Positions 6,689-55,818 of a stretch of 64,000 nt of DNA are shown here, in pieces. The notes beneath the pieces were generated by a model. It ran no database searches. It saw nothing but the letters and a program-made list of their open reading frames with translations, and was not told the DNA's origin. The DNA is from Mobula hypostoma (lineage: Eukaryota). The DNA is taken from NCBI RefSeq assembly GCF_963921235.1, contig NC_086108.1, forward strand, positions 91,514,001 to 91,578,000. The letters are read 5' to 3'. The position numbers and the translations under genes were made by a program. Position 1 is the stretch's first letter. Every line of letters starts with the position of its first letter.

Positions 6689-8779
6689 GAAGGCATTCTC
6701 CTCACAACCTATTCTTCAAGCCCAGTACACAGTGGAGGTGAGAAATCACTTCGGCCCACTGGAAAGGGGGGAGGAAGAGACTGCCACCGACCGCTATCAA
6801 CGGCTCATAGACGCACACACAGATGCAACAAAGAGTTTGCCTACTGTGAAGTGAATCAAGAGTTGGATCTCGAAACATCCTGACGTCATCATAGCAAGAA
6901 GTGTGGTCAATGCTTGTCATGCCGAACTTAAAAGGAGCGAAACAGAAGAGCTAAGAGACGAGTTCAAGACAGCAAGGAACAATCTCTTTGCCACCTACGA
7001 CCGACTGAAGGAAGAGGAACTAGCTGAGAGAGATAGAGGCTGCTAATGAAGACATGCAGCATGGAGAAGCATGGCGCCTAGTCAATGAGATCAGTAGACG
7101 GAAGAAGGCCCCATCGAGTCAAATAAGTGGTAAAACAGCAGAGGACCGTGTCCAGACATGGTTTATCCACTTTAAGAACCTGCTGGGAAGTCCTCCAACG
7201 ATCACAGAAGAAGAAGAGGACACACCGGCAATACTAATGCAAGTCGACATCGATGATGGCCCATTCACCATTGAGGAAGTAAAGGGCAAATATGCACTCA
7301 AACAGGACAGGAGCGCTGGACCAGATGGGATACCACCAGATGTCCTGAAGAACTGCGACCTGGACGACATCTTGCGTATGTAACACAGCACTGATGAAAG
7401 GCAACAAACCAGAACAGTGGTCACTCTCAAACATTATCCCAGTCCCCAAGTCTGGATCCCTCATAAAGACAGATAACTTCCATGGTATTAGCTTGACCTG
7501 CACCTTAGCAAAGTTATACTATCGGATGATCTTGAACAGGATTCGCACTGCCATTGACCCTAAGCTAAGATTCAATCAGAATGGTTTTCGGCAGAAGTGC
7601 ACAAGAGTAATGCAAATACCTGCTCTCCGTAGGATCATTGAGGAAATCAAGAAGAACAACCTACCAACTGTGCTTACTTACATCGATTTTCGCAAAGCTT
7701 TTGACTCTGTTCACCGAGGTAAAATGCTGAAGATCCTGAAAGCTTACGGAGTGTCAGACCATCTACTGAGAGCAATAGAGTCCAGCTATACCAAAACCAA
7801 GGCGGAAGTTGTATCACCAGATGGAGAAACAGCAGTGTTCGAACTCCTAGCTGGTGTGCTGCAAGGAGACACTCTGGCACCCTACCTCTTTATAATCGTC
7901 CTTGATTACGCTCTGCGACAGGCTACCAAAGATCATGACAAGCTTGGTTTTACCATAAAACCAGGATGAACAAAAGGGTCAAACCAGTTACGCTCACAGA
8001 TCTCGATTTTGCAGATGACATAGTCCTGCTCTCTGACCAGATGGAGGAAGCACAGCAGCTACTGACAAAAGTGGAAATTGAGTGCAATAAAGTTGGACTT
8101 CACCTAAATGCTAAAAAGACAGAGTACATGGCATTTAACTGCGACAAAGGTACTCTCAAGACTGTAAAGAATGATACCATCAAGGAAGTCTTTGACTACG
8201 AGTACCTTGGGTCAAGAATGATGAGTTCGGAGGACATAAGATACGGAAGACACTGGTGTGGAGAGTTATGAACGACATGAAGGAAATCTGGAAGTCATAC
8301 CTGACCAGAGGACTTAAAAAGACAATTTTCATAGCAGTCATAGAGTCCATTCTCACGTACGGATGTGAGATGTGGACACTCACCAAAACTATGCAAAAGT
8401 CTCTAGATGGTTGCTATACACGAATGCTCTGGATGGCTCTTGACATGTTGGCAACAGCACATGACGAACGCCGAGCTCTGTAACAACCTACTGATGCTCA
8501 CCACCAAAATCGAGGCGAGATTACTGCAACTAGCAGGGCACTGTCTACACCACCCCAAGCTACCTGCCAGCCTAGTCATCATATGGGAGCCCAAGCACGG
8601 GAGGATGAACCCTGGGCGCCCTCCCAAGACTACAGTGAACATGCTCCTTGGAGACAGCGGCACAGCTAATTTAGATGAACTGAACACACTGATGAGGGAG
8701 AGGGAGAACTGGAGAGCCCGTCATCGTGCCCGATGCCGGCCCCCTAGGCCTGAGTCGTCGTCGCCGCCATCACGGTGGC

Positions 8780-11019: not shown

Positions 11020-13154
11020 CCCCGCCATCCGAAGGTAGAATGTTCCTATGAAATGGTTCGTAAGCCAGAATGTCGTAAAGCAAAGAAGCAATTACCATTA
11101 ATTTATATGGGAAAAATTTGTGAGCATTCGCAGACCCAAAAATAAACTACCAAATCATGCCAAATAACACATAAAACCTAAAATAGCAGTAACATATACA
11201 GGTGTCCCCCGCTTTTCGAACGTTCGCTTTACAAAACCTCCCTGTTACGAAAGACCTACATTAGTTACCTGTTTTCGCTAACAGAAGGTGTTTTCACTAT
11301 TACGAAAAGAGCAGCGCACCGCGAGCAGCCGCTCTGCCCCGGATTCGGAATGGCATTCTCGCCGGCATTGCTTAAACACGTGCCTGTGAGCAGCCGTTAG
11401 CAAGATGAGTTCTAAGGTATCAGAAAAGCCTAAAAGAACTCGTAAGGGTGCTGCACTTTGTGTAAAACTGGACATAATTAAGCGTTTCGATCGTGGTGAA
11501 CAAAGTACCAAGTGAGTTTAGCTTGTGGAAATTGACGAAGATGATGTTGAAGAGGTTTTGGCATCCCATGACCAAGAACTGATAGATGAAGAACTGATGC
11601 AATTGGAAGAGGAAAGGATAACAATCAAAACCGAATGTAGTAGCGAACGGACCGAAAGTGAAATCATCCAGGAACTGAACGTGAAACAACTGCGTGAGAT
11701 TTTCGCTGCAATGATAAAGTACGACTTTAATTCTGAAAGGGTACGTCGGTTTAGGGCATATTTGCAAGATGGTTTGAGTGCTTACAAAGAACTGTATAAT
11801 AGAAAAATACGTGAGGCTAAGCAATCAAGCACAATGTCGTTTTTCAAACCTTCCACATCAGCCACAGCAGACGACGAACCTCAACCTTCGACATGGAGGC
11901 AGGCAGACACAGAAGATGATGATCTGCCTGCTCTGATCGACGATGAGATAACACCCACCGTGTCCCACCACCCCAGTGGTCCCAACCCCCAGGCCACGGA
12001 CAGATACCGATTCGCGGAGAATGCAGCAGTAGCCGGGAGGCATCCAGTACATCTTTAAGAAAAAAGCCGAAATAAACAAGCTAATGAATTAGGTGCCGCC
12101 CAGCACGTAAATGTCGGCCCAGATCAGAGGCGATTGCCGATTGCTTGTTTATTTTGGCTTTTTTCTTAAAGATGTGCTGGGTGCATCCTGGCTACCGCTG
12201 GACCACTGCATTCTTCATGGATCGGTATCAGCTCGCTGCCCAGAGGGTGGGGGCCACTGCACCGCCCCAATTTCCGATGACTCAGCCTAACACAACATCA
12301 TCAGTGTAATCGGCGCTGTCTTCCTGATTCCCGTAAGTGATATTTCTACTTTATATCGGCTGTGTATCTTTACGTATTATTTGGTATGATTTGGCAGCTT
12401 CATAGCTTAAAGGTTACTGGAGAGCGCTTGTGCCGTGTTTCTGCCGAGAGCGCTTGCGTGAGATTTTTGCAGCGAAAATCTCACGCGGTTGCTTCACGTT
12501 CAGTTCCTGGACTACTTCACTTTCGGTCCGTTCGCTACTGCATTCGGTTTTGACTGTTATCCTTTCCTCTTCCAATTGCATCAGCACTATATCTATCAGT
12601 TCTTAGTCATGGGATGCCAAAACCTCTTCAACATCATCTTCCTCAACTTCCACAAGCCAAACTCACTTTGTCCTTACTTTCAAACAACAGGAATTCTGCA
12701 GATGCTGGAAATTCAAGCAACACACATCAAAGTTGCTGGTGAACGCAGCAGGCCAAGCAGCATCTATAGGAAGAGGCGCAGTCGACGTTTCAGGCCGAGA
12801 CGCCTCTTCCTATAGATGCTGCTTGGCCTGCTGCTTTGTCCTTACTTTGTTCACCACGATCGAAACGCTTAATTATGTCTAGTTTTACGCTAAGTGTAAC
12901 ACCCTTACGAGCTCTTTCAGGCTTTTCCGATACCTTAGAACTCATCTTGCTAATGGCTGCTCACAGGCACGTGTTTAAGCAATGCCGGCTAGAATGCCGT
13001 TCCGAATCCGGGACAGAGCGGCTGCTCGGGGCCCGCGCTGCCTTTTTTCGTAACAGCGAAAACACCTTCTGTTAGTGAAAACAGGTAACTAATGTAGGTC
13101 TTTCGTAACAGTGACGTTTCGTAAAGCGAACATTCGAAAAGCGGGGGACACCTG
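11020..13154. mobile_element. Composite of internally deleted Tigger/pogo-like elements: right-end fragment 11020-11198, + copy 11199-~12466, inverted copy ~12467-13154
   Basis: TA|CAGGTGTCCCCCGCTTTTCGAA at 11199 and its reverse complement ending at 13154|TA. Carries a CENP-B-type N-terminus (MSSKVSEKPKR.RKG..L.VKLDIIKRFDRGE) joined to an acidic Tigger C-terminus, with no DDE core. Same family as 54301-55818. Confidence 0.85.
12681..12833. mobile_element. Short palindromic Penelope-derived insertion with 15-bp TSD
   Basis: CTTTGTCCTTACTTT at 12666-12680 and 12834-12848; internal inverted arms. Confidence 0.85.
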
Positions 13155-17017: not shown

Positions 17018-20000
17018 AGAACATAGAATAATAGTACAGCACAGTACAGTACAAGTCCTTCGGCCCTCATTGTTGTGCCGACCCTCAAACCTGCCTCCCG
17101 TATAACCCCCCACCTTTAATTCCTCCATATACCTGTCTAGTAATCTCTTAAATTTCACTACTGTATCTGCCTCCACCACTGACTCAGGCAGGGTATTCCA
17201 TGCACCAACCACTCTGAGTAAAAAATCTTCCTCTAATATCCCCCTTGTACTTCCCACCCATTACCTTAAAGCCATGTCCCCTTGTATTGAGCAGTGGCGC
17301 TCTGGGGAAGAAGCGCAGGCTGTCCACTCTATCTATTCCTCTTAATATCTTGTATATCTCTATCATGTCTCCTCTCATCCTCCTTCTCTCCAAAGCGTAA
17401 AGCCCTAGCTCTCTTAATCTCTGATCATAATCCATACTCTCTAAACCAGGCAGCATCGTGGTAAATCTCCTCTGTACCCTTTCCAGTGCTTCCACATCCT
17501 TCCTATAGTGAGGTGACCAGAACTAGACACAGTACTCCAAGTGCCTAACCAGAATTTTATAGAGCTGCATCATTACCTCGCGACTCTTAAACTCCATCCC
17601 TCGACTTATGAAAGCTAACACCCCATAAGCTTTCTAAACTACTCTATCTACCTGTGAGGCAACTTTCAGAGATCTATGGACTTGTACCCCCAGATCCTTC
17701 TACTCCTCCACACTATCAAGTATCCCACCGTTTGCTTTGTACTCTGCCTTGGAGTCTGTCCTTCCAAAGTGTACCACTTCACACTTCTCTGGGGTGAACT
17801 CCATCTGCCACTTCTCAGCCCACTTCTGCAACCTATCAATGTCTCTCTGCAATCTTTGACAATCCTCTACACTATCTACAACACCACCAACCTTTGTGTC
17901 GTCTGCAAACTTGCCAACCCACCCTTCTACCCCCACATCTAGGTCGCTAATAAAAATCACGAAAAGTAGAGGTCCCAAAACCGATCCTTGTGGAAAACCA
18001 CTAGTCACAACCCTCCAATCCAAATGTTCTCCCTCCACCATGACCCACTGCCTTCTGCAGGCAAGCCAATTCTGAATCCACCTGGCCAAACTTCCCTGGA
18101 TCCCATGCCTTCCGACTTTCTGAATAAGCCTACGGTGTGGAACCTTGTCAAATGCCTTACTAAAATCCATATAGATCACATCCACTGCACTACCCTCATC
18201 TATATGCCTGGTCACCTCCTCAAAGAACTCTATCAGACCACGATTCTCTAAATGCCCACAGATCCTATCTCTAAGAATCTTCTCCAACAGCTTTCCCACT
18301 ACAGACATAAGACTCACTGGTCTATAATCACCCGGACTATCCCTACTACCTCTTTTGAACAAGGGGACAACATTCGCCTCACTCCAATCCTCCGGTACCA
18401 TTCCCGTAGACAACGAGGACATAAAAATCCTAGCCAGAGGCTCAGCAACCTCTTCCCTCACCTCGTGGAGCAGCCTGGGGAATATTCCATCAGGCCCCGG
18501 GGACTTATCCGTCCTAATGTATTTTAACAACTCCAACACCTCCGCTCCCTTAATATCAACATGCTCCAGAACATCAACGTCATTCATATTGTCCTCATCA
18601 TCATCAAGTTCCCTCTCATTGGTGAATACCGAAGAGAAGTATTCATTGAGGACCTCGCTCACTTCCACAGCCTCCAGGCACATCTTCCCACCTTTATCTC
18701 TAATCGGTCCTACCTTCACTCCTGTCATTCTTTTGTTCTTCACATAATTGAAGAATGCCTTGGGGTTTTCCTTTACTCTAGTCGCCAAGGCCTTCTCATG
18801 ACCCCTTCTTGCTCTTCTCAGCCTCTTAAGCTCCTTTCTTGCTACCCTATATTCCTCAACAGACCCATCTGATCCTTGCTTCCTAAACCTCATGTATGTT
18901 GCCTTCTTCCACCTGACTAGATTTTCCACCTCACTTGTCACCCATGATTCCTTCACCCTACCATTCTTTATCTTCCTCACTGGGACAAATTTATCCCTAA
19001 CATCCTGCAAGAGATCTCTAAACATCGACCACATGTCCATAGTACATTTCCCTACAAAAACATCATCCCAATTCACACCTGCAAGTTCTAGCCTTGCAGC
19101 CTCATAATCTGCCCTTCCCCAGTAAAAAATTTTCCTGTCCTCTCTGATTCTATCCTTTTCCATGATAATGCTGAAGGCCAGGGAGCGGTGGTCACTGATC
19201 CCCAGATGCTTACCCACTGAGAGCTCTGTAACCTAACCCGGTTCGTTTCCTAATACTAGATCTAGTATGGCATTCCCCCTAGCCAGCCTGTCAACATACT
19301 GTGACAGGAATCCATCCTGGACACACTTAAACTTGCCCCTTCCAAACCCTTGGGACTAATCAGGTGCCAATCAATATTAGGGAAGTTAAAGTCACCCATT
19401 ATAACAACCCTGTTATTTTTGCACCCTTCCAAAATCTGCCTCCCAATCTGCTCCTCGGTATCTCTGCTGCTATCAGGGGGCCTATAGAATACTCCCAATA
19501 GATTAAGTGCTCCCTTCCTGTTCCTGACTTCTACCCATACTGACTCAAAAGAAGATCCTGCTACATTACCCACCCTTTCTGTAGCTGTAATAGTATCCCT
19601 GACCAGTAATGCCACCCCTCCTCCCCTTTTAACCCCCCCCCCCTTTTAAAGCACTGAAATCCAGGAATATTGAGAATCCATTCCTGCCCTGGTGCCCGTC
19701 AAGTCTCTGTAATGGCCACTACATCATAATTCCATGTATGTATCCAAGCTCTCAGTTCATCACCTTTGTTCCTGATGCTTCTTGCATTGAAGTATACGCA
19801 CTTTAGCCCTTCTGCCTTCCTACTTTTACACCCTTTATTCTGCATCTTTCCTCAAAGCCTCTCTCTATATGTTAGATCTGGCTTTACTCCATGCACTTCT
19901 TTCACTACCCTATCGCTCTGGATCCCATCCCCCTTGCAAACCCTCTCAAACCATACTCGCAAACCTACCTGCAAGAATATTGCTCCCCCTCAAGTTCAGG

Positions 20001-26460: not shown

Positions 26461-27259
26461 GCTTTATATTATTCGCTAGTTTGCCAATTATGTGGACTTA
26501 GAAATTATATATTTAGATTAGCGCAAATTTCTGACTATTGGATAGCCCACTAAATTTCTGACAATCACATTAAAAACTCATCAAATCCATGACTCCTGCA
26601 AGATATGAAAAAATTAAATCCTTAAAATACATGTTCAATATTTCAATGCTCACATAAATCCCTTCAGATAATGCTTTAAAAATAAATGAGTTATAAGTGT
26701 CCTAGTAGGCCAACTCATTTATTAATTTTGATTCTTAAACAGGTCCTTTAAATTCAGAACACAAGCTCTAAATAGATGGATGGATTATGTAGTAAATACA
26801 CCGAAATCAAAATTAAATGCTTTCTCCATTCATCTTCCAAACAAATGCATAGCAAACATGAACATCCAAACAGAAAACATTAAGATCGACCTATTAAAAG
26901 GATTATCATGAACACTCAAACTGAATTTACTAAATATTGCTAGCATTTGCAAGGCAGCTTTTAATCTTTTTAATACTAAATGCACCTCAAACATTTACTT
27001 GGCTTTCTGTGTCTTGGTCATTGTGCCTCAAACTAATTTATTGTTACAGGAAATTGAGTAAATGATAATATCGCCAATATTCCTTTATATAAATCAAGAC
27101 TAAGAGGATCCACAGGAAAATTGTTGACCATATGATTCTGGCAATGGAAATTAAAACAGGATTATATTGTAATTCCTTGGCTCAACTAAATTGGAAAGCA
27201 CTTGCTCCAGACGAGTTCTAAAGTCATAAAGCCCTACAAGCTAGCGTAAAATAGTATAG

Positions 27260-27544
27260 TGTAGCGGTGTGCTACACACAGCGCTAGAATAACCACACAG
27301 AGTCGGTGAGTTAGAGTTGCGATGAAAGAGATTTTTTCAAACTTCGCGGCCTGCTTTAAAGCCTTCCCGTTCCCGTCCTCCCTGGGCGGGATTGCTGTGG
27401 GGAATGCATAATCCCAGACCCTTTCTGCGTGCGGGATTTTCCCCCTGCTGGTGAAGATGGCCTGGCGCCCTTTTTGGGGCCGGCCCTCTGCCTGCGCGCG
27501 CTGTTGTGAACCGGTTCGTGTGTGCCAGAAAGTGGGTCGCCACA
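27260..27544 (-). repeat. Gypsy 3' LTR
   Basis: Direct repeat of 31353-31637, about 11 mismatches by eye; AATAAA mutated to AAAAAA in this copy. Confidence 0.95.
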
Positions 27545-27549
27545 TAACC

Positions 27550-30500
27550 CCCCCCCCCCACCCAGAACCGGCGATACCTCCCCCAATGTCCACAGTCTGG
27601 ATCGGCCTCAGTTTGGGAGGTCTGCCCCTGCGCCGCGGTGCCTGAGCCTGGACCAGTTGCGCCAAGTCCACATGGGCCGGTTTGAGTCGGTCCACCGTGA
27701 ATACCTCCTCTCTCCCCCCAATGTCCAGCACGAATGTGGACCCGTTGTTCCTGATCACCTTAAACGGTCCCTCGTAGGGCCGCTGTAGCGGTGCCCGGTG
27801 TCCGCCCCGTCGTACAAAAAGAAACTTTGGAAACTGCAGGTCTTTGGGTACGTAGGTCGGGCTCTGTCTGTGCTGTGAAGTGGGTATGGGGGCCAGGTTA
27901 CCGAGCCTCTCCCGTAGTCTGTCCAGGACTGCTGTGGGTTCTTCCTCTTGCCCCCTTGGGGCTGGTATGAACTCTCCTGGGACGACCAGGGGCGCGCCAT
28001 ACACCAACTCGGCCGACGAGGTGTGCAGATCCTCCTTGGGCGCCGTGCGGATTCCGAGCAGGACCCAGGGAAGTTCGTCCACCCAGTTAGGCCCCTCCAG
28101 GCGGGCCATGAGAGCCAATTTCAGGTGATGGTGGAAGCGCTCCACTAGTCCGTTCGACTGTGGGTGGTAGGCAGTTGTGTGGTGTAACTGTGTTCCTAAA
28201 AGGCTGGCCATAGCCGACCACAGGCTGGAGGTGAACTGGGCGCCCCTGTCGGAGGTAATGTGGGCCGGTACCCCAAAGCATGCTACCCAGGTTGCGATCA
28301 GTGCTCGGGCGCAGGATTCGGAGGTGGTGTCGGTGAGCGGGACTGCCTCTGGCCATCTGGTGAACCGGTCTATCATAGTTAGGAGGTACCGCGCTCCTCA
28401 CGACACTGGCAGGGGCCCCACGATATCCACATGGATGTGGTCGAACCTCCGGTGGGTGGGTTCGAACCACTGTGGCGGAGCCTTGGTGTGCTGCTGCACC
28501 TTGGCCGTTTGGTACTGCATGCACGTTTTGGCCCATTCACTGACCTGCTTACCAAGTCCATACCACACGAATCTGTTGGCGACCAGCCGGACGGTTGTCC
28601 TGATGGAGGGGTGCGCTAAGTTGTGAATGGACTCGAAAACCCGCCGGCGCCAGGCTGCTGGGACGACGGGGTGGGGTTGGCCGGTAGCTACGTCACATAG
28701 TAGGGTCCTCTCACCTGGGCCTACAGGGAGGTCTTGAAGCTGTAAACCGGAGATTGCAGTCCTGTAACTGGGGATCTCAGTGTCTGCCTGCTGTGCCTCT
28801 GCCAGCGCTGCATAGTCCACCCCCTGGGACAGGGCCTGTATGGTAGGTCTGGAAAGTGCGTCCGCCACGACCTTGTTCTTTCCAGAGACATGCCGGATGT
28901 CCGTCATGTACTCGGAGATGTAGGACAGATGTCGCTGCTGGCGGGACGACCAGGGGTCGGACACCTTAGTGAACGCAAAGGTAAGCGGTTTGTGGTCTGT
29001 GGTCTGTGAACGCGGTGAAGGGCCTACCTTCTAAGAAGTACCTGAAATGCCAGATTGCCAGGTATAGTGCCAATAGCTCCCAGTCGAAAGCACTGTATTT
29101 GAGTTCGGGTGGTCGTAGGTGTTTGCTGAAGAACGCCAGGGGTTGCCAGCGATCCTCGATGAGTTGTTCCAGCACTCCACCGGCCGCTGTGTTGGATGCG
29201 TCCACCGTGAGGGCAGTAGGAACGTCCGTTCTGGGGTGCACTAGCATCACAGCGTTTGCTAAGGCTTCTTTGGTTTTAACGAAAGCAGTTGCGGCCTCTT
29301 CGTCCCAGGTAATGTCCTTGCCCTTACCCGACATCAGGGTGAACAGGGGGCGCATGGTTCGGGCTGCTGAGGGGAGGAAACGGTGGTAAAAATTCACCAT
29401 ACCCACGAATTCCTGCAAGCCTTTGATTGTGTTGGGTCGGGGGAAGTGGCGGACCGCATCTACCTTGGCGGGCAGCGGGGTTGCCCCGTCTTTAGTAATC
29501 CTGTGGCCCAGGAAGTCGATGGTGTCGAGTCCGAACTGGCATTTGGCTGGATTGATTGTAAGGCCGAATTCGCTCAGGCGGGAGTAGAGCTGGCAGAGGT
29601 GGGACAGATGCTCCTGCCGACTACTGCTGGCTATGAGGATGTCATCCAAATAGATGAATGCAAAGTCCAGGTCGCGTCCCACTGCGTCCATTAGCCACTG
29701 GGAAGTCTGTGCAGCATTCTTTAGACCAAACGGCATTCGGAGGAATTCGAAAAGTCCGAACGGGGTGATAAGTGCTGGTTTGGGGATGTCGTCCGGATGT
29801 ACAGGGGTTTGATGGTATCCCCGGACGAGGTCTACCTTGGAAAAGATCCTTGCGCCGTGTAGGTTTGCTGCGAAGTCTTGAATGTGCGGCACAGGGTAGC
29901 GGTCTGGTGTTGTAGCCTCGTTCAGTCTGCAGTAATCACCGCATGGTCTCCAGCCCCCGTTGCCTTGGACACCATGTGGAGGGAGGAGGCCCATGGGCTG
30001 TCGGACCGTCGTATGATCCCTAATTCCTCCATCTTCTTGAACTCCTCCTTCGCCAGTTGGAGCTTGTCCGGGGGAAGCCTTCGTGCACGGGCGTGGAGGG
30101 GTGGTCCCTGGGTCGGGATGTGGTGCTGTACTCCGTGTCTGGGCATGGTTGCCGTGAACTGCGGTGTCAGTACTGATGGGAAATCCGCCAGGACCCTGGT
30201 GAATTCATCGTCAGACAGCGTGATGGAGTCCAGGTGTGGGGCTGGCAACTGTGCTTCACCCAGGGAGAACGTTTGAAAAGTCTTGGCGTGGACTAATCGC
30301 TTCCCTTGCAGGTCGACCAGCAGGCTGTGGGCTCGTAGAAAATCTGCCCCCAGCAGTGGTTGGGCCACGGTGGCCAGTGTGAAGTCCCACGTGAACCGGC
30401 TGGAGCTGAACTGTAGCTGCACCGTGCGAGTGCCGTAGGTTCGTATTGTGCTGCCATTAGCGGCCCTCAGGGTGTGTCCTAGTTCTCTGTTGCGGGTGTC

Positions 30501-31312
30501 GTAACTCGTTGGGAGTTAGGACGCTGATCTCCGCTCCGGTGTCGACCAAAAAGCGGCGTCCCGACTGCTTGTCCCAGACGTACAGGAGGCTGTCCTGATG
30601 GCCAGCCGCCATAGCCATCAGCGGCGGCTGGCCCTGGCGTTTCCCGGGAATTTGCAGGGTGGTCTGCAGTGGCAGGCCTCCGCTGGTGGTAGAAACACCA
30701 TTGTTCGTTGGGCTCCTCGCTCCCGTCGCCGGGTTTTGTAGGCTCTGCTGTCGGGCCTGGTCTGGTCTGTCGTTGGGCACGCGGCTTGGTGATCTGTGCG
30801 ACGGATGCCCCTCTCTCTTTCCTAGCATTCCACAGCACATCTGCTCGGGCCGCCACCTCCCGGGGGTTGCTGAAATCTGCGTCGGACAGCAGCAGGCATA
30901 TGTCCTCGGGCAGTTGCTCTAGGAATGCCTGCTCAAACATGAGGCAGGGTTTGTGTCCTTCAGCCAGGGCCAGCATCTCGTTCATTAATGCTGACGGTGG
31001 CCTGTCTCCCAAACCATCCAGATGCATTAAGCGGCGTGCTCGTTCACACCGTGAGAGTCCGAAAGTCCTTATGAGCAGGGCTTTGAATGCTGTGTATTTG
31101 CCGTCCTCCGGGGGCGACTGTATAAACTCCTCAACCTGTGCAGCAGTCTCCTGGTTGAGTGAGCTCAGCACGTAGTAGTAGCGAGTGGACTCCGAGGTTA
31201 TCTGCCGAATGTGGAATTGTGCTTCTGCTTGTTCGAACCATAATTGGGGTCGCAGTGTCCAGAAGCTTGGCAGTTTTAACGAAACTGCGTGAACAAACGC
31301 AGTGTCGGTCAT
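27550..31312 (-). pseudogene. Gypsy gag-pol, several frameshifts
   Basis: Gag VSLKLPSFW...WFEQAEAQF...WCFYHQR. Pol is split over ORFs 30457-30840, 29922-30422, 28966-29994, 28398-28964 and 27234-28376. A 7-nt duplication near 28991-29004 shifts the frame in RNase H. Confidence 0.92.
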
Positions 31313-31336
31313 CTCTGGTCCAAATATCGTTTGGGC

Positions 31337-31350
31337 CGTCGGGGTCACCA
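31337..31350 (-). promoter_or_regulatory. Primer binding site, tRNA-Trp
   Basis: TGGTGACCCCGACG is complementary to the vertebrate tRNA-Trp 3' end (CGTCGGGGTCACCA); 2 nt from the LTR. Confidence 0.88.
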
Positions 31351-31352
31351 AT

Positions 31353-31637
31353 TGTAGCGGTGTGCTACACACAGCGCTAGAATAACCACACGGAGTTGGT
31401 GAGTTAGAGTTGCGATGAAAGAGATTTATTCAAACTTCGCGGCCTGCTTTAAAGCCTTCCCGTTCCCGCCCTCCTTGGGCGGGATTGCTGTGGGGAATGC
31501 ATATTCCCAGACCCTTTCTGCGCATGGGATTTTCCCCCTGCTGGTGAAGATGGCCTGGCGCCCTTTTTGGGGCCGGCCCTCTGCCTGCGCGTGCTGTTGT
31601 GAGCCGGTTCGTGTGTGCCAGAAAGTGGGTCGCCACA
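31353..31637 (-). repeat. Gypsy 5' LTR
   Basis: Direct repeat of 27260-27544; immediately followed by the PBS. Confidence 0.95.
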
Positions 31638-34600: not shown

Positions 34601-35319
34601 AATTTGTGTTAAGAATAGGAAAGGTCAGAAAACATTAATAGGAGCTATTTCTAAGCAACCAAATAGTAGTTGTAAGGTGCAGCATAAATCAAGAAATTAG
34701 AGATGGTTGTGATGGGGGAACATGGTAATCAATGCAATGGTTACAGCAGAATACATACTTAATCATATGTAGTTAATCTCAGTTGCACAGGTTTAGAAAA
34801 CCAGACTCAAAATTAAGGTCATTTCTGTCTTTACACAACCTCAAAGGCTCATTGAAGGTAATAGCAAATTGACCGCCCATGACATCAGCAATGGAGAAGC
34901 ACACAAATCTAGTTTGGGGAGAAAAAAATCAGAAAAGGTTCTATTTAAAAACAGCATTCAGAATACAAAGAAAGAAATATAATTTTCATATTTCTGACAA
35001 TTCCCCAACAAGGATAGGGAGCTTAAAGTATTTTTCTCCTGAGAAGATAAATTCTGCAATTCTCCCTTGTTTCAAGTCAAACACATTAGCATCATTCAGT
35101 ATAAACAATCCCATTTAAGACATTTTAAATTTTTACAACATTGGAATAATATCCAAACAAGCCACTGTGCCCAAGACTTGAAGGGGTGTACATCAATCTG
35201 TGGCATGTACTTAATATAATGCATACTTAAACTTATGACTTAAACTGTAACTCAGCAACATAGGAACATTAAAGCATGTAACAGTTAAGAACATTGCCGT
35301 AAGATGAAAGAAAACCTAC

Positions 35320-35392
35320 CAGTAACCACCACACTGCTCATTGTAGAGTTTGGACTGCTGAGAATGGTGCCAGAAAGTTCGTCAGATCCTCT
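35320..35392 (-). CDS. PTBP2: PTBP2 coding exon 3 (73 nt), RGSDELSGTILSSPNSTMSSVVVT
   Basis: attcacag|AGAGGATCTGAC...GTGGTTACTG|gtaggt. The peptide resembles PTBP2 [25 protein letters not shown], and the phase-1 end fits exon 4. Confidence 0.95.
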
Positions 35393-35669
35393 CTGTGAAT
35401 AAATTTTTTTAAAAAATCACAATTTCATTACAATGTTAAATATTATGAACAGATTATCCAAATCAGCTAATGCAGGCACTATAATTGATATACTCCCTTA
35501 TAATACTGAAGTCTGCTGATGTCAACCAAAAACAATACCACAGAACAAGACCAAGATAAATTCAACCATGATTTCTCAAGCTCTGCCATCAGTTAGGACT
35601 GAATTACACAAATAGGCAAGGTTGAAAATCAGAAGAATTTTCATATCAAGGCATAACTTAATTGGGAGC

Positions 35670-35856
35670 TGTTGTAAGTGAGGAAACAAATTCGATAAGT
35701 CTCATGGACAAGGATTCTGGACACGCAGCCTTGGTAGTAAAGGATTTTATTTACAGAAGGCAAATGTGGGAAAATGGCAAAAGAAGCAACACACACACGC
35801 ACACAATTTACAGCAGTCGGACCAGCAATAAAACATACGCGGACAATTAATAAAAT
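35670..35856 (-). repeat. ERV 3' LTR remnant (distal R and U5 only) with intact AATAAA
   Basis: Homologous to 41168-41347; CTGTAAATAAAATCC near 35742-35756; joined directly to the env stub. Confidence 0.88.
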
Positions 35857-35987
35857 CACATGCAGATCCAGCAGTCCGATCTGTTGATGCTGCTGGTGAT
35901 CTCGTAAGCGACCCTGAGGAAGGTGTTGGCAGCTGTCCTGAAGCCAATCATTGCGGTGACCAGGAGGGATGACTGGAGTAATGCCAT
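35856..35987 (-). pseudogene. ERV env 5' stub: MALLQSSLLVTAMIGFRTAANTFLRVAYEITSSINRSDCWICM
   Basis: Hydrophobic signal-peptide-like start, NRS sequon and CWIC (CXXC) motif typical of gamma-type SU; positioned directly after IN; cut off by the deletion. Confidence 0.8.
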
Positions 35988-36029
35988 TGTCTTGTAAGGG
36001 GTGGGGGGGGGGGGGAGAAAGCAGGTGAG

Positions 36030-38908
36030 GACCAGGCTCATTCTCGTCAGGTTTGGTGGGTCGTGTATTTAACTGGTCAACGGCCTGCTGCAGCACACTC
36101 AACCACCCCTGCAGTGTGTGAGAGGGCGTTAACGTGTGTATTTTTTCTTTAAGCAGGCCATTCATCCTCTCAAATAATCCCGATGTCTGTAGGTGATAGG
36201 GGATACGGAACAGCCATGAGATCCCCACCTCAACGGCCCAGCTCTGAACTTTGGCCCCAGCAAAGTGCGAGCCCTGATCAGATTGTACCTCCCACGGGAC
36301 TCTATATATGGAAGAGAGGTACTGTAACCCTTTGATGGCGTTGTTCTGGTCAGCCCTCTCACAGGACACCGCCACCAGGACACCAGAGTACGTGTCCACC
36401 ATCGTCAGGGTGTACTGCTTTTTACTTTGACGTGGGAGAGTTCCAATATAGTCAATCTGCCATACGCGACCCGCTCTCGTCCTGCAATGAATGTGATCCT
36501 GCAGCCCTGTTGTCTAGCCCCATGGTTTCACCTGTTGGCAGATGGGGCAGATGGCAACAGAGGTCTTACACTGATCTAGCGTGAGGGTGAGCCAAAATTG
36601 CTCTGCCCAATGTGTGTACTGTTGGCCCCTAGATGGGTATTTTTGTGGTGTGCCCACACAGCTAGCGCACGGAGGTCAGTTTCTGGTAGGGAAGTGGTGG
36701 CACGACACATTTGGGCAGCCTGGTTCACAGCAGCGTTATGTATTGCTTCGTCAGTGTTTCTCTGGGTATGGGCATCCACATGATGGACTGAAATTTTCTG
36801 TGGGCAGCCTGGTCCCAAATGAACCACCAGTGCTGCTGTCCCCAGAGGGGATGTCCATGAATTTCCCACCTCATCTCATGCCATTGGGCCATCCACACAG
36901 CCATAACGATAGCCGCTGCCCAAGAGTTGGTGTAAATGTGGACTGGGCCGGTGGTATCCCGCAGGGTAAGAGCTATTGCTGCCAGCTCAACAAGTTGGCT
37001 GGACCCACTTGCTCCCTCTGTGGCTAAAATTTTGCCTGTGACGGGATGACGTGCCGCCGCCTTCCAATGCTGCTTTTCAGCAGCTAGATCTGTCTGTGAA
37101 CCAGGCATGCAATTTATGATCAGGCTCGAGGGAGTCGAATGGTTGGCCCCAGGACACAGGGGAGGGCCGGATTTCGGATGTGTCTGGGGCTGGGTCCTGG
37201 GACTGCGGGAATGACAAATCTGTTCGTGGAGGTGGCTGACCCCTTCTGGACTGGGTTCAGCCCGGTCTGCAATATACCACTTCCACTTTACTATGGAGGA
37301 CCTCTGGGCACGACCCTCTTTGTGGGTGGAATCGGGGGACTTGACCCACCGCATTATGAGCAGGTGGGGGCGAAGGACGACAGGGTCGGTGCCTGTTTGG
37401 TGTTCGGTGGCGAGCAGCGCTAGGTAACAGGCCAGCAGCTAGCACTTGAATGGGCTGTAGCGTGTGGCAGCTTCAGGAAGAGACTCGACCCAGAAACCAA
37501 ACGGGACTCTGCGCCCTTGGGTCTTCTGCCAGAGGCTCCATTCGGCGACCGTCTCACTGGCCGAAACCTGCAATTCAAAAGGGACACTTGCTTGGTGGGG
37601 AGAAAGTGGCAGTGCTTGTTCCACAGCTTGCTTAGCTGTATCGAAAGCAGCCTGTTGCTTGGATCCCCATAGGAATGTGGCTTTCTTGCAGGAGATCCTA
37701 TAGAGTGGTCTGAGAAGCATGGTAAGGTGAGGTATATGCTGCTGCCAGTAGCCTAGGAGGCCGACGAATCTCTGGGTGTCCGTTTTATTTGAGGGGACAG
37801 CAAAGTATAAAATTTTGATTTTGGCAGTCTCAGGAATGTCTCTTTGGCCTGAGTGCCATTGAATCCCGAGGAACAGAACACTCTGGCTGGGACCCTGTAC
37901 TTTTTCAAGGTTAATTGCCCAGCCACGTCCCTTGAGGGATGAGATTAACATATTAAGTGCCTCTGAGACAACGGTCTCAGACGGACCTTGCAGGAGGATA
38001 TCATCCATATAATGGGCAAGTGACACCTCTGGGGGAAATTGAATTTGATGTAAATCATGGGAGATTAGGCCGTGGCAAGTTGTTGGGCTGTGGACATAGC
38101 CCTGGGATAAGTGACAGAAAGTGTATTGTCTCCCATCCCACGTAAATGCAAATTGCTCGTGGCAATCTTGATGGAGGGGAATGGAGAAAAATGCGTTAGC
38201 CAAGTCCACCACTGCATACCAGGGCTTCCCACAATGTCTTCTACAAGGGTGACTATGTCGGGTACTGCGGTAGCAAGGGAGGAGGCTGCTATGTTTAAGT
38301 GTCCGTAGTCCACCGTCATGCGCCATGACCCATCCTTTTTGTGGATGGGCCAGACGGGACTGTTGAAGGGGGAGGCTGTGGGTCTAATGACACCTTCCCC
38401 CGCAATAGGGCTTGGATGGCCTCAGTGATGTCTTGATGTCTTGTGTACTGACGGTTACAGATGATTTGGGGGATGGGGGGGAACAAAGATAGGTTCCCAC
38501 TTGGCCGCTCCAACTACAATAGTGGCCCGTGCAACCCCGAAGGTAAACCTGCTTCTGTTGGTGTCAAGGGACCGTCCCTTTAAGACATTAATGCCGAGGA
38601 TGCACTCAGGCAAAGTGGTTATAAGGACTTTTACAGGTCAGGGAGGTTGGTTCTCAATGGCTAGATGGAGTGTGACCTCCTTCACGGGTAAAAGGGGAAC
38701 CCCCTAAGCCCTCTACCTGCATCTCGGTGCCCTTCCATCCAGCGGGATTGCCCGGGATGATGGTGTGTTGGGTACCCGTGTCGATGAGTGCCATCCACCT
38801 CTGTGGATTTCCCTTTCCCCAATATACAGCAACGGGTATTTGTGGCCTCTGATCACCCGTGCGGGACAGGGCGATGGAGTAAATGCACCTGGGGCCCTGG
38901 CCTTCATC
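36030..38908 (-). pseudogene. ERV pro-pol (PR, RT, RNase H, IN), frameshifted; no dUTPase seen
   Basis: ORFs 37439-38326, 36725-37354, 36576-36869 and 35641-36402, plus the protease frame DEGQGPRC...QRPQIPVAVYWGKGNPQRWMALIDTGTQHTIIPG. Confidence 0.92.
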
Positions 38909-41112
38909 CTATTGGGGGGGGGGGGTGCAGGTCTGCCACCTTCATTGCCCTGCTGGTGAAGATGGGACACTTCCTATCTCAGCAGCTCTCTGAACTCTGT
39001 CTTGACAGTAGGAGAAACAGTTTCAAGTGGGGGAGGGGCAGAGGGCGAGTTAGTGCCGGTGTGGGCTGGCTGCATGGTCTGGAGGTTGGGGGCGCCCCCT
39101 GTGTCGGGCTTGATCCCAGGGTGGGCGTTGTTTTTTCCCTGGCCTGTTTTCCCCCCACAAAGCTCCTCCCACAGGGTGTAGAGGTCAGGGTTGGGGATCC
39201 CATCTATGCTGTTGCTATCCACCCCTGCGTGCACCAGGCCCAGGTACTGCTCTCTGCACGTAAAGAGGGGAGGGATTGTGTTTCCAGCCCTCGCCTCTGC
39301 CCTACGGACCTGGGGGAGTGCCCCCCACTGCATATATTCAAGACCTTCCAGGAGGGTGATGGCATCCCACATGATCTTCCCGTTAGCTGGTGCCATGAGG
39401 GGCAGGGTCACTGACTTTAAATCAGGGGGGGCGGAGATGACCAGGTATCCTGTTAGGGCACCGGTCACCCGGGTATTTTCCAAAAAAATACAGTTGCTGG
39501 CTCCCTGGTAGATGCTGTTGACCAGTGCCCACTCTCTAACAACCCAGGTGCCCTCACTAACCGTACCCCATTGTAGGCATCCATGTAGATCCCACTCCAG
39601 GTGGGTAAGGTATCGGACCCTCACAGCGATCACTACTAGGCTTGCCAACTGTCCCATATTGGCCGGGACATCCCGTATATTGGGCTAAATTGGTTTGCCC
39701 CATACGGGACCGCCCTTGTCCCGTATTTTCCCCGCTAAGGTAGAGCGTTCCTATGAAACATTGTGTGCCGAATAGGTGTAAAGCGAAGAAGCAATTACCA
39801 TTAATTTATATGGGAAAAATTTTTCAGCATTCCCAGACCCCAAAAAATAACCTACCAAATCGTACCAAATAACACATAAAACCTAAAAATAACACTAACA
39901 TATAGTAAAAGCAGGAATGATATAATAAACAGCCTACATAAAGTAGAAGAAATGTATGTACAGTGTCATTTCACTGAACAGAATTGCCAAAACCTATTTG
40001 TACAAAAAAATTGGCACGTACACGCATGGACCCGTCATGTATGTACACACAGGTACCCAGGCAAGGCTTCAAGGTCATGGTAGTCCTTCCTGGGGTAAAC
40101 ACAAGCGTCCCGTATTTGACTGCTACTTTTGTCCCTTATTTGGGAGTGAGAAAGTTGGCAACCCTAGTCATCACCCGATCCCACAGGGAAGTGCCTTCCC
40201 GGATTTCTGGCTGTGGTGCCCGTAGGGCATTGTTGATGCTTTGTTGGTCAGAGAGGCTCCTCAGCGCGCTCGCCTCTTGATGAGAGAGGCTCAAGTTGGG
40301 GGCCCCCTCATCCCACAGCCGGAGCAGCCACGCGGCCAGGTGCTCGCCCGGCCGTTGGCGGTACTGATCCGCCAGCTGGGTCAGCTCCTTTGGGGAGCAA
40401 TCCCGGGTTTCAGAGGGACAACCGGCATGCCTCTCTGCGGCTTAGTCATCCTCATTCCCCCCCCTCTCTGCGGTGGACCTGGGACCGCGTGGTGACGGGT
40501 CGAGCGTGCAGGGCTTCGGGTGGATAGGGGGAGGGCGGTGTGGGACCTAGGCTCCTCGGGCACCCCCTCCTCGTTTAGCCATATATACCCATACCCCAGC
40601 CACGCATCCAGCTTGTCACCACGCTGGACCAGGGCTCGAATTTTTAGTGGGTGCGGCTGCCAGCCAGACCGGCGGGCTGCCCACGCCTGCTGCAGCTCTA
40701 TTAACCTGTAGGCGACTTCAGTCCCTCTGACCGAGATTGTTGGCTCGAGTCTGGGCAGCTTGTACTGCCTCCTGCAACGTGGAGCAGCGGTGCCAGAGCC
40801 CTTCTAACTCTGGTTGCATAACAGCTGGATCTGGCCAGAAACCCTAACCTGGCGTCTCAGGAGGGATGCCAGCAGCCAAAAGGCACCCCTTTGATTCCCT
40901 TTGGCTTTGGGGAACCCCGACTTCTTAAGGAGGGAGACCACGTGGTGCCCTAGTTTCTCGCCACGTGGGTCCAACTGCTCAGACCAGTCCACCAGTTCAC
41001 CATGGTCCGCCAGCAGGCTGGCCAAGCGCTCAAATCCCTCTATCTCGTCGGTCCACCCAGGAATCCTATCCTCGGTGCCTGCACTGGCTTTTTTGCCCTT
41101 GTTCCAGAACAT
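38909..41112 (-). pseudogene. ERV gag, decayed and interrupted by a hAT MITE
   Basis: Starts MFWNKGKK about 35 nt after the PBS. C-terminal LVHAGVDSNSIDGIPNPDLYTLW resembles class III Gag. No CCHC knuckle seen. The TAG at 38911-38909 directly precedes the protease frame. Confidence 0.75.
39637..40166. mobile_element. Non-autonomous hAT (Ac-type) element inserted in ERV gag, carrying a Tigger terminal segment
   Basis: TIRs TAGGCTTGCCAACT / AGTTGGCAACCCTA; subterminal TCCCGTA-like repeats; degenerate 8-bp flanks ATCACTAC / GTCATCAC. Confidence 0.8.
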
Positions 41113-41146
41113 TTTTCCACGCATGTGTCCAGCCAAGACCCCTGAG

Positions 41147-41165
41147 ACCCTGCTGAGCAGCGCCA
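41147..41165 (-). promoter_or_regulatory. ERV primer binding site, tRNA-Ser-like
   Basis: TGGCGCTGCTCAGCAGGGT, 2 nt after the LTR; an imperfect match to the tRNA-Ser complements TGGCGCAGCGAGCAGGGT and TGGCGCTGTGAGCAGGAT. Confidence 0.7.
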
Positions 41166-41167
41166 AT

Positions 41168-41361
41168 TGTTGTAAGTGAGGAAACAGATTCGATAAGTCT
41201 CACGAACAAGGACACTGGACACGCAGCCTTGGTAGTAATGGATTTTTTTTTACAGAAGGCAAATATGGGAAAATGGCAACAGAAGCAACGCGCACACAAT
41301 TTACAGTAGTTGAATCAGCAATAAAACACGCAAACAATTAATAAAATTGTGTGGGAACAAA

Positions 41362-41409
<48 letters not shown>

Positions 41410-41817
41410 CCAAGGGAAAAGTCAATACGATACTCGACACCCCTGACTCTTCTGCTTAGGGACAATACCCACACCCCTAACCCTATTCAATGCACAACTC
41501 ACCAACAGCAGTGTGGTCCCTCGGAGGTAGCAAAAAAGAGAGCGGGTCAAGCACACGAGGCTTCCTTTATAGTGCAGCAGGGCTGATGAGTCCAGCCCAG
41601 GTGATTCACAGGGAAACCAATGGCTCGGTGCCAGCAGGGTTAATCTGATTACAAAGGCCAATTGCCCGAGGTCAAATACAAGGCTAATTAAAGGGGCCAA
41701 TGGTTAGGTGCGGATTGATGGGTGAGGAGGGGTCAAATATTGATCGGCAGGTGGCGTGTCTTTCGACCAGGTAAATGGGCAGTGCTGTCACATGACAGTC
41801 ACGACCCCTCCAATACA
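41168..41817 (-). repeat. ERV 5' LTR (650 bp): TATAAA at 41571-41566, splice-donor-like TTG|GTGAGT at 41503/41502, (TG)n tract
   Basis: 41168-41347 matches 35670-35856 at roughly 90% by eye; starts TGTATTGG next to the TSD and ends ACAACA next to the PBS. Confidence 0.88.
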
Positions 41818-43069
41818 GGAGCCAATGCGACTCATTGAGTGCAGGGAGGGGGAAGGTGGGCAGTCAAACAAAACGGAGCAAATCAGGACATGGGCTCTGT
41901 TTAGAATGATCTCGGGTTGTCAAGAGACCAAAATAAGAAATTACGTAAGAGTGCACTGGGAAACTCCAAGGATGAAACAAATATCATGAATTTCTGCAGA
42001 CACAAGTAGATGCAATCGAATGACATTATAGAAATCAGAAACCTTAAGTGACACAAACATGCAGTCCATGGCTCACCTTGAGATCAAGTATTCTGTGACT
42101 TAATACAGAAGCTGGTTTGGCTTCTGGCAGAAAGAATGGGATGTTCAAAGTGTCTCAAAAGTTGGCTTAGTACTCCTAACTGTTAGCCAAAGGGAACTCA
42201 GCAGCAGATGTCAAACAAAGAATCTGGTACATTTTATTTTTTTTTAAAAGGCCTAACCAATTTATTACTGTAATAGACTGCAGCAACAAGATATCAGGTA
42301 AAAAGACACTGCCTGGACAAGTTAAACAACCACCCAGATGTCCAAAGCTCGATGACACAATGACAAACAATTAATCTGACAAAATACAGAGCAGTCAGCT
42401 CCTACCACAATGGTAACTCAGCTTCTATGTGTAGTCATTCTATATCTGGATCAGACCTCATATATGTACAAGAAAATATCAACACTTTTGTTTCACTGAC
42501 AAATAAATCCCAATCAACAGCCTGAAGATACCAATTAAGCTCTATGGCAATATACAAAAGAAATCAAAGGAAATCCAAAAATGAAGCATGAAAACAACAA
42601 GCAACAGACAAAGGTAATTTAGTACCAATACTGTCAGTTATATTTTCATTATTTTGTCAAAGGTCTTGTTCAATCACAGTACAATTAGTGATGCTGTCCA
42701 CATGCTTTCAGCAGAACAAGTTTTTAGAAGCTGCTTCCCATATAAGAATGGATAAGGACTTCCAGTTCAAAAGTTCAGGTTTGTTAACGTGGGAGAAATA
42801 TTCAGGATTGAAGCAATTGCAGGAAACATTTGTACCAATTAGTTTGACAGCCTGTATTCCACTATTTTTATTATAGCCCACATGGCTCAAATTTATCTCT
42901 ACACTTCGTACCCGTATCAAATGCATTCGGTTTGGAACAAACAATAAAAGAACAACCTTAGGTTTCAAAGTAAATGATAGCAAGCCACAAATACAATCCA
43001 TTTAGTACGGAAAAAGTGAGAGATGAATAAGAGCTGAACCAAAAATATTGAGTATAAAATTATGGTTTC

Positions 43070-54300: not shown

Positions 54301-55818
54301 CAGGTGTCCCCCGCTTTTCGAACGTTCGCTTTACGAAACCTCACTGTTATGAAAGACCTACATTAGTTACTTGTTTTCGCTAACAGAAGATGTTTTCACT
54401 GTTACGAGAAAAGGCAGCGCGCCCTGAGCAGCCAAACTCCTCCCTCAGAACTGCATTCTAGCTGGCATTGCTTAAACAGGTGCCTGTGAGCAGCCGTTAG
54501 CAAAGTTCTAAGGGATCGGAAAAGCCTAAAAGAGCTTGTAAGGGTGTTACACTTGGCATAAATCTAGACATAATTAAGCGTTTCGATTGTGGTGAACTAA
54601 GTAAGGACAAAGTGAGTTTGGCTTGTGGAAGTTGACGAAGATGATGTTGAAGAGGTTTTGGTATCCAATGACCAAGAACTGATGGGTGAAGAGCTGATGC
54701 AATTGGAAGAGGAAAGGATAACAACTGAAACCGAATGCAGTAGCAAACGGACCAAAAGTGAAGTCGTCCAGGAACTGAACGTGAAGCAACTGCATGAGAT
54801 TTTCGCTGCAATTGACAACAATGATTGCAGAAAAGTACGACTTTAATTTTGAAAGGGTACGTCGGTTTAGGGCATATTTGCAAGATAGTTTAAGTGCTTA
54901 CAAAGAACTGTATGATAGAAAAATGCACGAGGCTAAGCAGTCAAGCATACTGTTGTTTTTCAAGCCTTCTACATCAGCCACAGCAGACGACAAACCTCAA
55001 CCTTCGACATCGAGGCAGGCAGACATAGAAGAAGATGACCTGCCTGCCCTGATGGAAACAGACGACAATGAGATGACACCCCAGTGTCCCACCACCCCAA
55101 TCCCCGGACTGATACACTGCCGCGGAGAATGCGCGGTAGCCAGGACGCACCCAACGCATCTTTAAGATAAAAGCCAAAATAAACAAGCTAAATAATTAGG
55201 TGCCGCCCATAATTAATTAGCTTATTTCAGCTTTTTTCTTAAAGATGTGCTGGGTGCATCCCAGTTACCGCTGCATTCTCCGCGGATCGGTATCAGTTCG
55301 TTGTCCGGAGGTTGGGGACCACTGCACCACCCCAACCTCCGACGACTTAGCCTAACACACCATCAACAGTGTGCTCGGCACTGTCTTCCCGATTCCAGTA
55401 AGTGATACTACACTGTACATACATTATTTCTACTTTATATAGGCTGTGTATTTTTGTGTGTTATTTGGTATGATTTGGCAGCTTCACAGCTTAAAGGTTA
55501 CTGGAGAGAGTGTTTCTGCCAAGAGAGCTTGCGTGAGGTTTTCATTACGGAGAACAGTGCAGCAATGATTGTAGCAAAGTATTTCTACTTTATATAGGCT
55601 GTGTATTGATCATATCATTCCTGCTTTTACTATATGTTACTGTTATTTTAGGTTTTATGTGTTATTTGGCATGATTTGGTAGGTTATTTTTTGGGACTGC
55701 GAACGCTCACAAATTTTTCCCATATAAATAAATGGTAATTGCTTCTTCACTTTACAACATTCTGGCTTACGAACCATTTGATAGGAAAGCTCTACCTTCG
55801 GATGGCAGGGGAAACCTG
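54301..55818 (+). mobile_element. Internally deleted Tigger/pogo-like DNA transposon with both ends
   Basis: TA|CAGGTGTCCCC ... GGGGAAACCTG|TA; N-terminal HTH stub and acidic C-terminus ending KQSSILLFF; internal inverted repeat at about 55090-55335. Confidence 0.88.

Follow-up and report, generated by a model that had tools for sequence, protein, structure and literature searches.

Structure of the provirus

The window analysed here, a stretch of 64,000 nucleotides from Mobula hypostoma (G000:C50:91514001-91578000), carries a provirus on its minus strand at positions 35670-41817. Both ends are exact, and the element is flanked on either side by a copy of the target-site duplication GGAGC (41818..41822 on the 5' side and 35665..35669 on the 3' side of the provirus, no strand), just as a preceding sequence-only reading of this DNA had described. 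The 5' LTR (41168..41817, minus strand) comprises 650 bases, ends in TGT...ACA, and contains a TATA-like box at 41571 and a (TG)21 run at 41367-41408. The 3' LTR is reduced to a remnant of about 187 bases (35670..35856, minus strand), which aligns only to the final ~180 bases of the 5' LTR (87%). The K2P distance between the two LTRs is 0.096, based on 179 sites.

Two bases separate the 5' LTR from a primer binding site (41147..41165, minus strand) that matches the host tRNA-Ser (CGA or TGA genes). The match of the window site is imperfect, with a single substitution and an additional base, and the site of a sister copy (L046) agrees in 18 of 18 positions with the site predicted from the 3' end of the host tRNA-Ser. 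With a second tRNA search pattern, ARAGORN called CGA or TGA tRNA-Ser genes at nine of ten loci; the first pattern had yielded a tRNA gene at none of eight loci. The start codon of gag is located 55 bases past the 5' LTR, so that the leader is short. Both the Ser-like primer site and the very short leader had been proposed before, and both hold. An Rfam search of positions 35000-42600 gave no match.

The gag region (38909..41112, minus strand) is ERV-L/Fv1-like and interrupted by stops, frameshifts and an insert; the Gag part of a related Hemitrygon protein carries an Fv1-like annotation. A CCHC motif is absent from every frame of the window gag and of the sister stretches scanned, in agreement with the earlier description of a Gag without this knuckle. 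The insert is non-viral, 530 bases long (39637..40166, no strand), has terminal inverted repeats and is flanked by a decayed 8-bp duplication (39629-39636 and 40167-40174). It is missing from five sister copies, and in four other runs it occurs as a repeat of very high depth. Based on its terminal repeats and the 8-bp duplication, we take it to be a non-autonomous DNA transposon of the hAT type. Pieces akin to this insert are also found at positions 11032-11198 and 55401-55798 of the window.

The protease region (38420..38908, minus strand) contains the DTG motif, is frameshifted and includes stops. It is followed by the reverse transcriptase (RT), tether and RNase H (36730..38419, minus strand), with a frameshift near 38225 and a stop near 37440, and by the zinc finger and core of the integrase (36052..36729, minus strand), the tail of which was removed by a deletion of ~210 bases near 36056. 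Pfam recognized RVT_1, RT_RNaseH_2 and rve above the cut-off, with RNase_H and RVP staying below it. Beyond the protease and RT motifs that had been noticed initially, those of RNase H and integrase were also found, and the RT active site reads YMDD. Aligned to P0065, an intact relative from a stingray, gag and pol of the window copy fall into eight pieces and show frame changes and stops. No gene of the window copy is intact, and most likely this copy has no present function.

The envelope gene

The start of an env gene behind the integrase was confirmed as a stub of 43 codons (35856..35987, minus strand), which consists of a signal-peptide-like start and a CWIC motif and is fused to the LTR remnant by a deletion. 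Compared to the sister copies, about 1.7-1.9 kb are gone from the window copy, including most of env, the polypurine tract and U3. In the sister copies, env has a length of about 1.14-1.24 kb (five copies measured), corresponding to about 400-415 codons, and encodes CWIC, a furin-type basic site, an ISD motif and CX6CC besides a hydrophobic start and a membrane span. The recovery of copies with a full env, which had been suggested as a check, thus succeeded with respect to the layout, but env is broken in all copies examined, and in several of them much of env or pol is gone. An open env stretch of 177 residues matches Pfam TLV_coat (1.4e-10), has syncytins as its best PDB matches and is 82% identical to an env-like model of Hypanus sabinus. 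The env of this ray family is gamma-type. A piece of the same env (78%) also terminates an NLR-like gene model of Hemitrygon akajei (P0035), which is probably an annotation join.

Integrase tail and dUTPase

The sequence-only reading had also noted that no dUTPase follows the integrase. The window copy alone cannot show this, because about 200-230 bases of the integrase tail that are present in sister copies are missing exactly where a dUTPase would be located. In the sister copies, the integrase core leads via a short linker directly to the C-terminal domain. We searched 10 stretches of the family by tblastn with dUTPase queries from three relatives and obtained a best E value of 0.69, while the integrase tail was recovered in seven of these stretches. 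Hence, the claim stands for the family but not as a reading of the window copy, and the absence of a dUTPase is a trait of the ray family. Many neighbours in the RT clade described below have a dUTPase, and both this and a related ray family are without it. This difference may stem from either gain or loss of the dUTPase. Behind the core motif, the integrase of the related ray family continues for 121 residues, compared to 234 in P0079, a Pol protein of X. tropicalis.

Phylogenetic placement of the reverse transcriptase

Among named proteins, those of Hemitrygon akajei (75%) and Hypanus sabinus (72%) are nearest, followed by Pol proteins of amphibians, birds, teleosts, bichir and lungfish (45-55%). 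This order points to a ray of the stingray type as the likely host, in line with the cartilaginous fish proposed initially. Trees were calculated with FastTree from about 200 RT stretches and with IQ-TREE from 54 rows picked from these, a selection without named HERV-S, SnRV or foamy RTs. Two reference rows carry names that we inferred: P0080, a cluster that has 753 members, mouse sequences among them, and a dUTPase behind the integrase, was taken as mouse ERV-L, and P0079, the motif spacing of which fits the published XtERV-S table with a 3-residue deletion, was taken as a copy of XtERV-S. In both trees, the window RT grouped with Hemitrygon P0001 (73% identical; support 100/99) and both with the second Hemitrygon family represented by P0065 (100/95). 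This ray group is nested in a clade of 38 rows (98/96) that includes P0080 and P0079, to which the window RT is 52.5% and 51.6% identical, respectively. The assignment to class III (ERV-L/ERV-S-like) was thereby supported.

Identities amount to 47-61% for class III rows, 28-34% for class I rows and 24% for the Gypsy element of the window. A grouping with Gypsy or class I elements, named beforehand as the outcome that would speak against class III, did not occur, and AU tests on 26 rows rejected a union of the ray sequences with class I (p 1.4e-4) as well as with Gypsy (p 1.7e-5). A union with P0079 was likewise rejected (p 0.003), although the large drop in likelihood may partly come from the constrained search, whereas a union with P0080 was not rejected (p 0.28); the 26 rows did not resolve the order inside the clade. 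Scans of IMG/VR returned no close relative and one distant class I-like virus. We also considered and rejected membership in the foamy viruses: the env is gamma-type, and the Pr125Pol and PR-RT chains of the structure library, which we take to be foamy RTs, scored only 62-75 bits.

The second class III family of Hemitrygon akajei (P0017, P0065-P0067 and P0070) consists of young-looking, near-identical long Gag-Pol models without a dUTPase.

Copies in the genome, selection and age

By RT DNA matches of at least 75%, we located nine further loci, giving about ten internal copies in all. A search with the LTR produced 271 candidates, 40 of which were scored at 86-93%. Among 29 other LTR loci that were fetched, 23 have a 5-bp duplication of their own (at most one mismatch), and these loci are therefore mostly solo LTRs. 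The SU part of env is kept at 10 loci (at least 79%, counting the query and the window stub), and the RT likewise at 10 loci.

Variants shared between copies were found at third codon positions in 43 of 59 cases for RT, 35 of 68 for RNase H and 6 of 9 for integrase. For the TM part of env, the ratio is 10 of 17 (p 0.027; four regions tested, no correction), a signal from only 17 sites in copies that are related and hence not independent. Private variants fall on third positions at a frequency near one third (70/189 and 40/100), with those of the integrase also being skewed (48/103, p 0.004). The third-position bias fits selection on pol and, weakly, on env during the spread of the family, as would be expected for reinfection. 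Together with the complete env layout of sister copies, it makes the earlier view that the virus was infectious a reasonable one.

The LTR distance of the copy on C36 is 0.080, and the LTRs of the copy on C91 differ at 29 of 663 aligned columns. A value of 0.235 for the copy on C5 was dropped, since an internal duplication had misaligned its LTRs. At a rate of 0.5e-9, as assumed for catshark in the part of PMC10699275 used here, these distances and that of the window copy would roughly correspond to an age of 45-100 million years, and to about twice that at the rate of 2.2e-10 given in PMC4422223; both rates are assumptions.

The insertion itself could be traced in other data. A contig of organism B, which derives from another study and bears another species label, spans the flank and the 3' LTR and differs at 13 of 858 bases; a second contig spans the boundary of the 530-base insert. 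Therefore, both the provirus and its insert are older than the split from organism B. In organism C, one contig connects position 35624 of the flank to about 39061, and in organism D a piece ends at 35624, which gives a weak hint that both represent this insertion after a deletion of larger size.

One sister locus has a compound structure (L034/L035, G000:C36:59103500-59119200): behind the 3' LTR of a provirus lie another primer site, a short piece of gag and a further LTR end, the whole being enclosed by a single ACCTT duplication. Near-identical repeats with env and LTR of the family (~80%) occur at L102-L104 and L120-L122 on the small contigs C122, C123, C140, C148, C162 and C178. Contigs similar to these carry RT sequences (57-60%) that belong to a different class III family, and the repeats probably form a repeated array.

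The gag/pro junction

In the window copy, a TAG in the pro-pol frame (38909..38911, minus strand) marks the junction, with a pyrimidine-rich tract upstream. An in-frame gag/pol stop of the XtERV-S type was seen at none of eight junctions; all of these copies are decayed, and their C runs slip. In five of the eight, pro-pol lies in the -1 frame behind the stop. We sought a canonical -1 slippery heptamer common to the copies at these junctions and found none. Pro-pol has no nearby ATG, and the frames upstream of the junction vary as well. The pyrimidine tract together with YAG|G directly at the pro-pol start resembles a splice acceptor. The genome holds a third class III family (L111, L112 and L114; RT 55-58% identical), which has gag and pro-pol in the same frame with a stop between them. 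Because a C-rich tract precedes this in-frame stop at the corresponding position, the pyrimidine tract gives no independent sign of splicing. Readthrough of a stop that has been obscured by decay is possible. We consider it distinctly unlikely that the family represents a ray-specific, dUTPase-less and enveloped branch of the ERV-L clade that would have made Pol from a spliced message, as foamy viruses do, or by an unusual frameshift. If Pol was spliced, this would link the expression strategies of foamy viruses and ERV-L.

Comparison to known retroviruses

Mouse ERV-L (P0080, name inferred) is the nearest named mammalian relative by RT and has the Gag type, the lack of a zinc knuckle and the 5-bp duplication in common with the ray family. 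In contrast, ERV-L has a dUTPase after the integrase and no env, and the ray family is the opposite in both respects. ERV-L is primed by tRNA-Leu, the ray family by tRNA-Ser. The primer of HERV-S is presumably also tRNA-Ser. Mammalian ERV-S/HERV-S shares class III membership, env and the absence of a dUTPase with the ray family, a likeness drawn from the published description, in which ERV-S has an env and no identifiable dUTPase (PMC8278194).

The closest layout is that of XtERV-S from Xenopus and of related ERVs from African frogs, with class III gag-pol, a gamma-type env and a Ser primer (Yedavalli et al. 2021; PMC8278194). According to the parts of that report used here, XtERV-S and the ray family have in common CWIC near the SU start, a furin site, CX6CC, ISD, a short leader, no Cys-His box, TGT...ACA ends, a 5-bp duplication, many solo LTRs and a similar env size (441 amino acids versus about 400-415 codons). 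The primer genes are AGA/TGA in the former and CGA/TGA in the latter, and XtERV-S is intact and recent whereas all ray copies are decayed. Moreover, XtERV-S has a dUTPase-like segment after the integrase, for which the searched stretches of the ray family gave no match, and an in-frame gag/pol stop, which none of the eight decayed ray junctions shows. Between the ray RT and the likely XtERV-S Pol (P0079), identity is only ~52%. The frog elements AnERV6 and AnERV8 have an ERV-L-like Pol with a dUTPase at its 3' end, unlike the ray family, and AnERV8 is said to be classified like XtERV-S (10.1101/2024.07.05.601823).

Env-bearing class III elements are also described from cartilaginous fish. Lineage I of the elephant shark CmiERVs groups with snakehead retrovirus (SnRV; Han 2015; PMC4422223), and the SnRV-related clade is recognized apart from HERVS/L-like elements (PMC4977317). 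By these descriptions, their grouping with SnRV would set them apart from the ray family with its ERV-L relatives; in addition, SnRV has one zinc finger (PMC1224870) while none was found in the ray family. ERVs with a gamma-type Env are reported from six cartilaginous fish, and class III Pol occurs among such anamniote ERVs (10.1101/2021.11.23.469661). A survey of six chondrichthyan genomes lists 2843 clade III RT loci, with class III making up the majority of the ERV RTs there (PMC11089739). The ray family itself is represented by gene models of Hemitrygon akajei (P0001) and of Hypanus sabinus (P0020 and P0034) with 66-82% amino-acid identity in pol and env; these are automatic annotations only and carry no description as an ERV family. 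No ERV-L-like ray family is named in the parts of the literature searched, including PMC4422223, PMC4977317, PMC6001957, PMC1224870, PMC8672886 and PMC10699275; supplements of the surveys, Dfam and Repbase lay outside this search. The proposal of a poorly described fish lineage was therefore correct in so far as no description of the ray family was found, but overstated the surprise, since its layout is published for XtERV-S and ERV-S (PMC8278194). This layout is one known from frogs and humans, found here in a ray family for which we saw no description.

Origin and fate of the ray family

Taken together, we are confident that the locus harbours a dead provirus of a simple, ERV-L-related class III retrovirus with a gamma-type env and no dUTPase. 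The virus likely invaded the germ line of an ancestral ray some tens of millions of years ago, likely spread by reinfection and subsequently decayed. Because sister copies contain an env, the family was likely once infectious. In the corresponding life cycle, tRNA-Ser would prime reverse transcription and env would be expressed from a spliced message; SU and TM may have been disulfide-linked via CWIC and CX6CC, and Env would have mediated entry into germ cells. Solo LTRs would have arisen through recombination between LTRs. The decay of the window copy, in turn, is directly visible as stops, frameshifts, two deletions and the transposon insert.

Alternatively, the same element might have multiplied within germ cells, either in the manner of a retrotransposon, as for mammalian ERV-L, or through complementation, with env as a passenger after a single founding infection. 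The broken state of all examined copies, several with large parts of env or pol missing, agrees with such a history, as do the small number of env sites behind the shared-variant signal and the skew that private integrase variants show as well. But SU has been retained at about as many loci as RT, and shared env variants favour third positions; overall, we regard a passenger env as unlikely. The Ser primer, the env and the lack of a dUTPase are ERV-S traits (PMC8278194), and CWIC, the short leader, the 5-bp duplication and the TGT...ACA ends agree with XtERV-S, so the family could truly belong to XtERV-S or to the ERV-S (HERV-S) lineage of mammals instead of forming a ray lineage of its own that shares their layout. 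This is very unlikely in our judgement: the AU test rejected the union with P0079, with the reservation on the constrained search made above, but not that with mouse ERV-L, the integrase tails of P0079 and the related ray family differ markedly in length, and the primer type is labile, as a bullfrog relative uses a Leu primer (PMC8278194).

That the element belongs to the class I (gamma/epsilon) ERVs or to Gypsy is extremely improbable. The gamma-type env would fit class I, and the best solved-structure matches of the RT are gammaretroviral-type Gag-Pol and p80 RT chains (104-106 bits), from a library that returned no ERV-L chain. However, the AU tests, the RT identities of 24-34% compared to 47-61% for class III, and the missing CCHC knuckle all argue against it.

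A dead class III retrovirus of this kind adds a cartilaginous-fish case to the view that members of the ERV-L clade were originally ordinary enveloped viruses, which lost env in mammals and in which gain or loss of the dUTPase varies by lineage. The XtERV-S layout now extends from frogs to rays, and the family offers dated, orthologous insertions for ray phylogeny. The classification of ERVs is unchanged, and the locus itself can be regarded as inert.

Other elements

The window also contains a Gypsy-type LTR retrotransposon (27234-31430, minus strand) with long frames for gag, protease/RT and integrase, which served as outgroup in the trees; its RT is 60% identical to an Entelurus protein. 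RT frames of non-LTR retrotransposons are located at 17700-19232 (minus strand) and 7349-7969 (plus strand) and presumably belong to a CR1-like element and another LINE. A low-complexity, G/A-rich run extends from 61885 to the end of the window at 64000. Among the database proteins, P0030 is a Gypsy-type polyprotein that carries, as a fusion, a domain of deoxynucleoside kinases (Pfam dNK, 1e-46).
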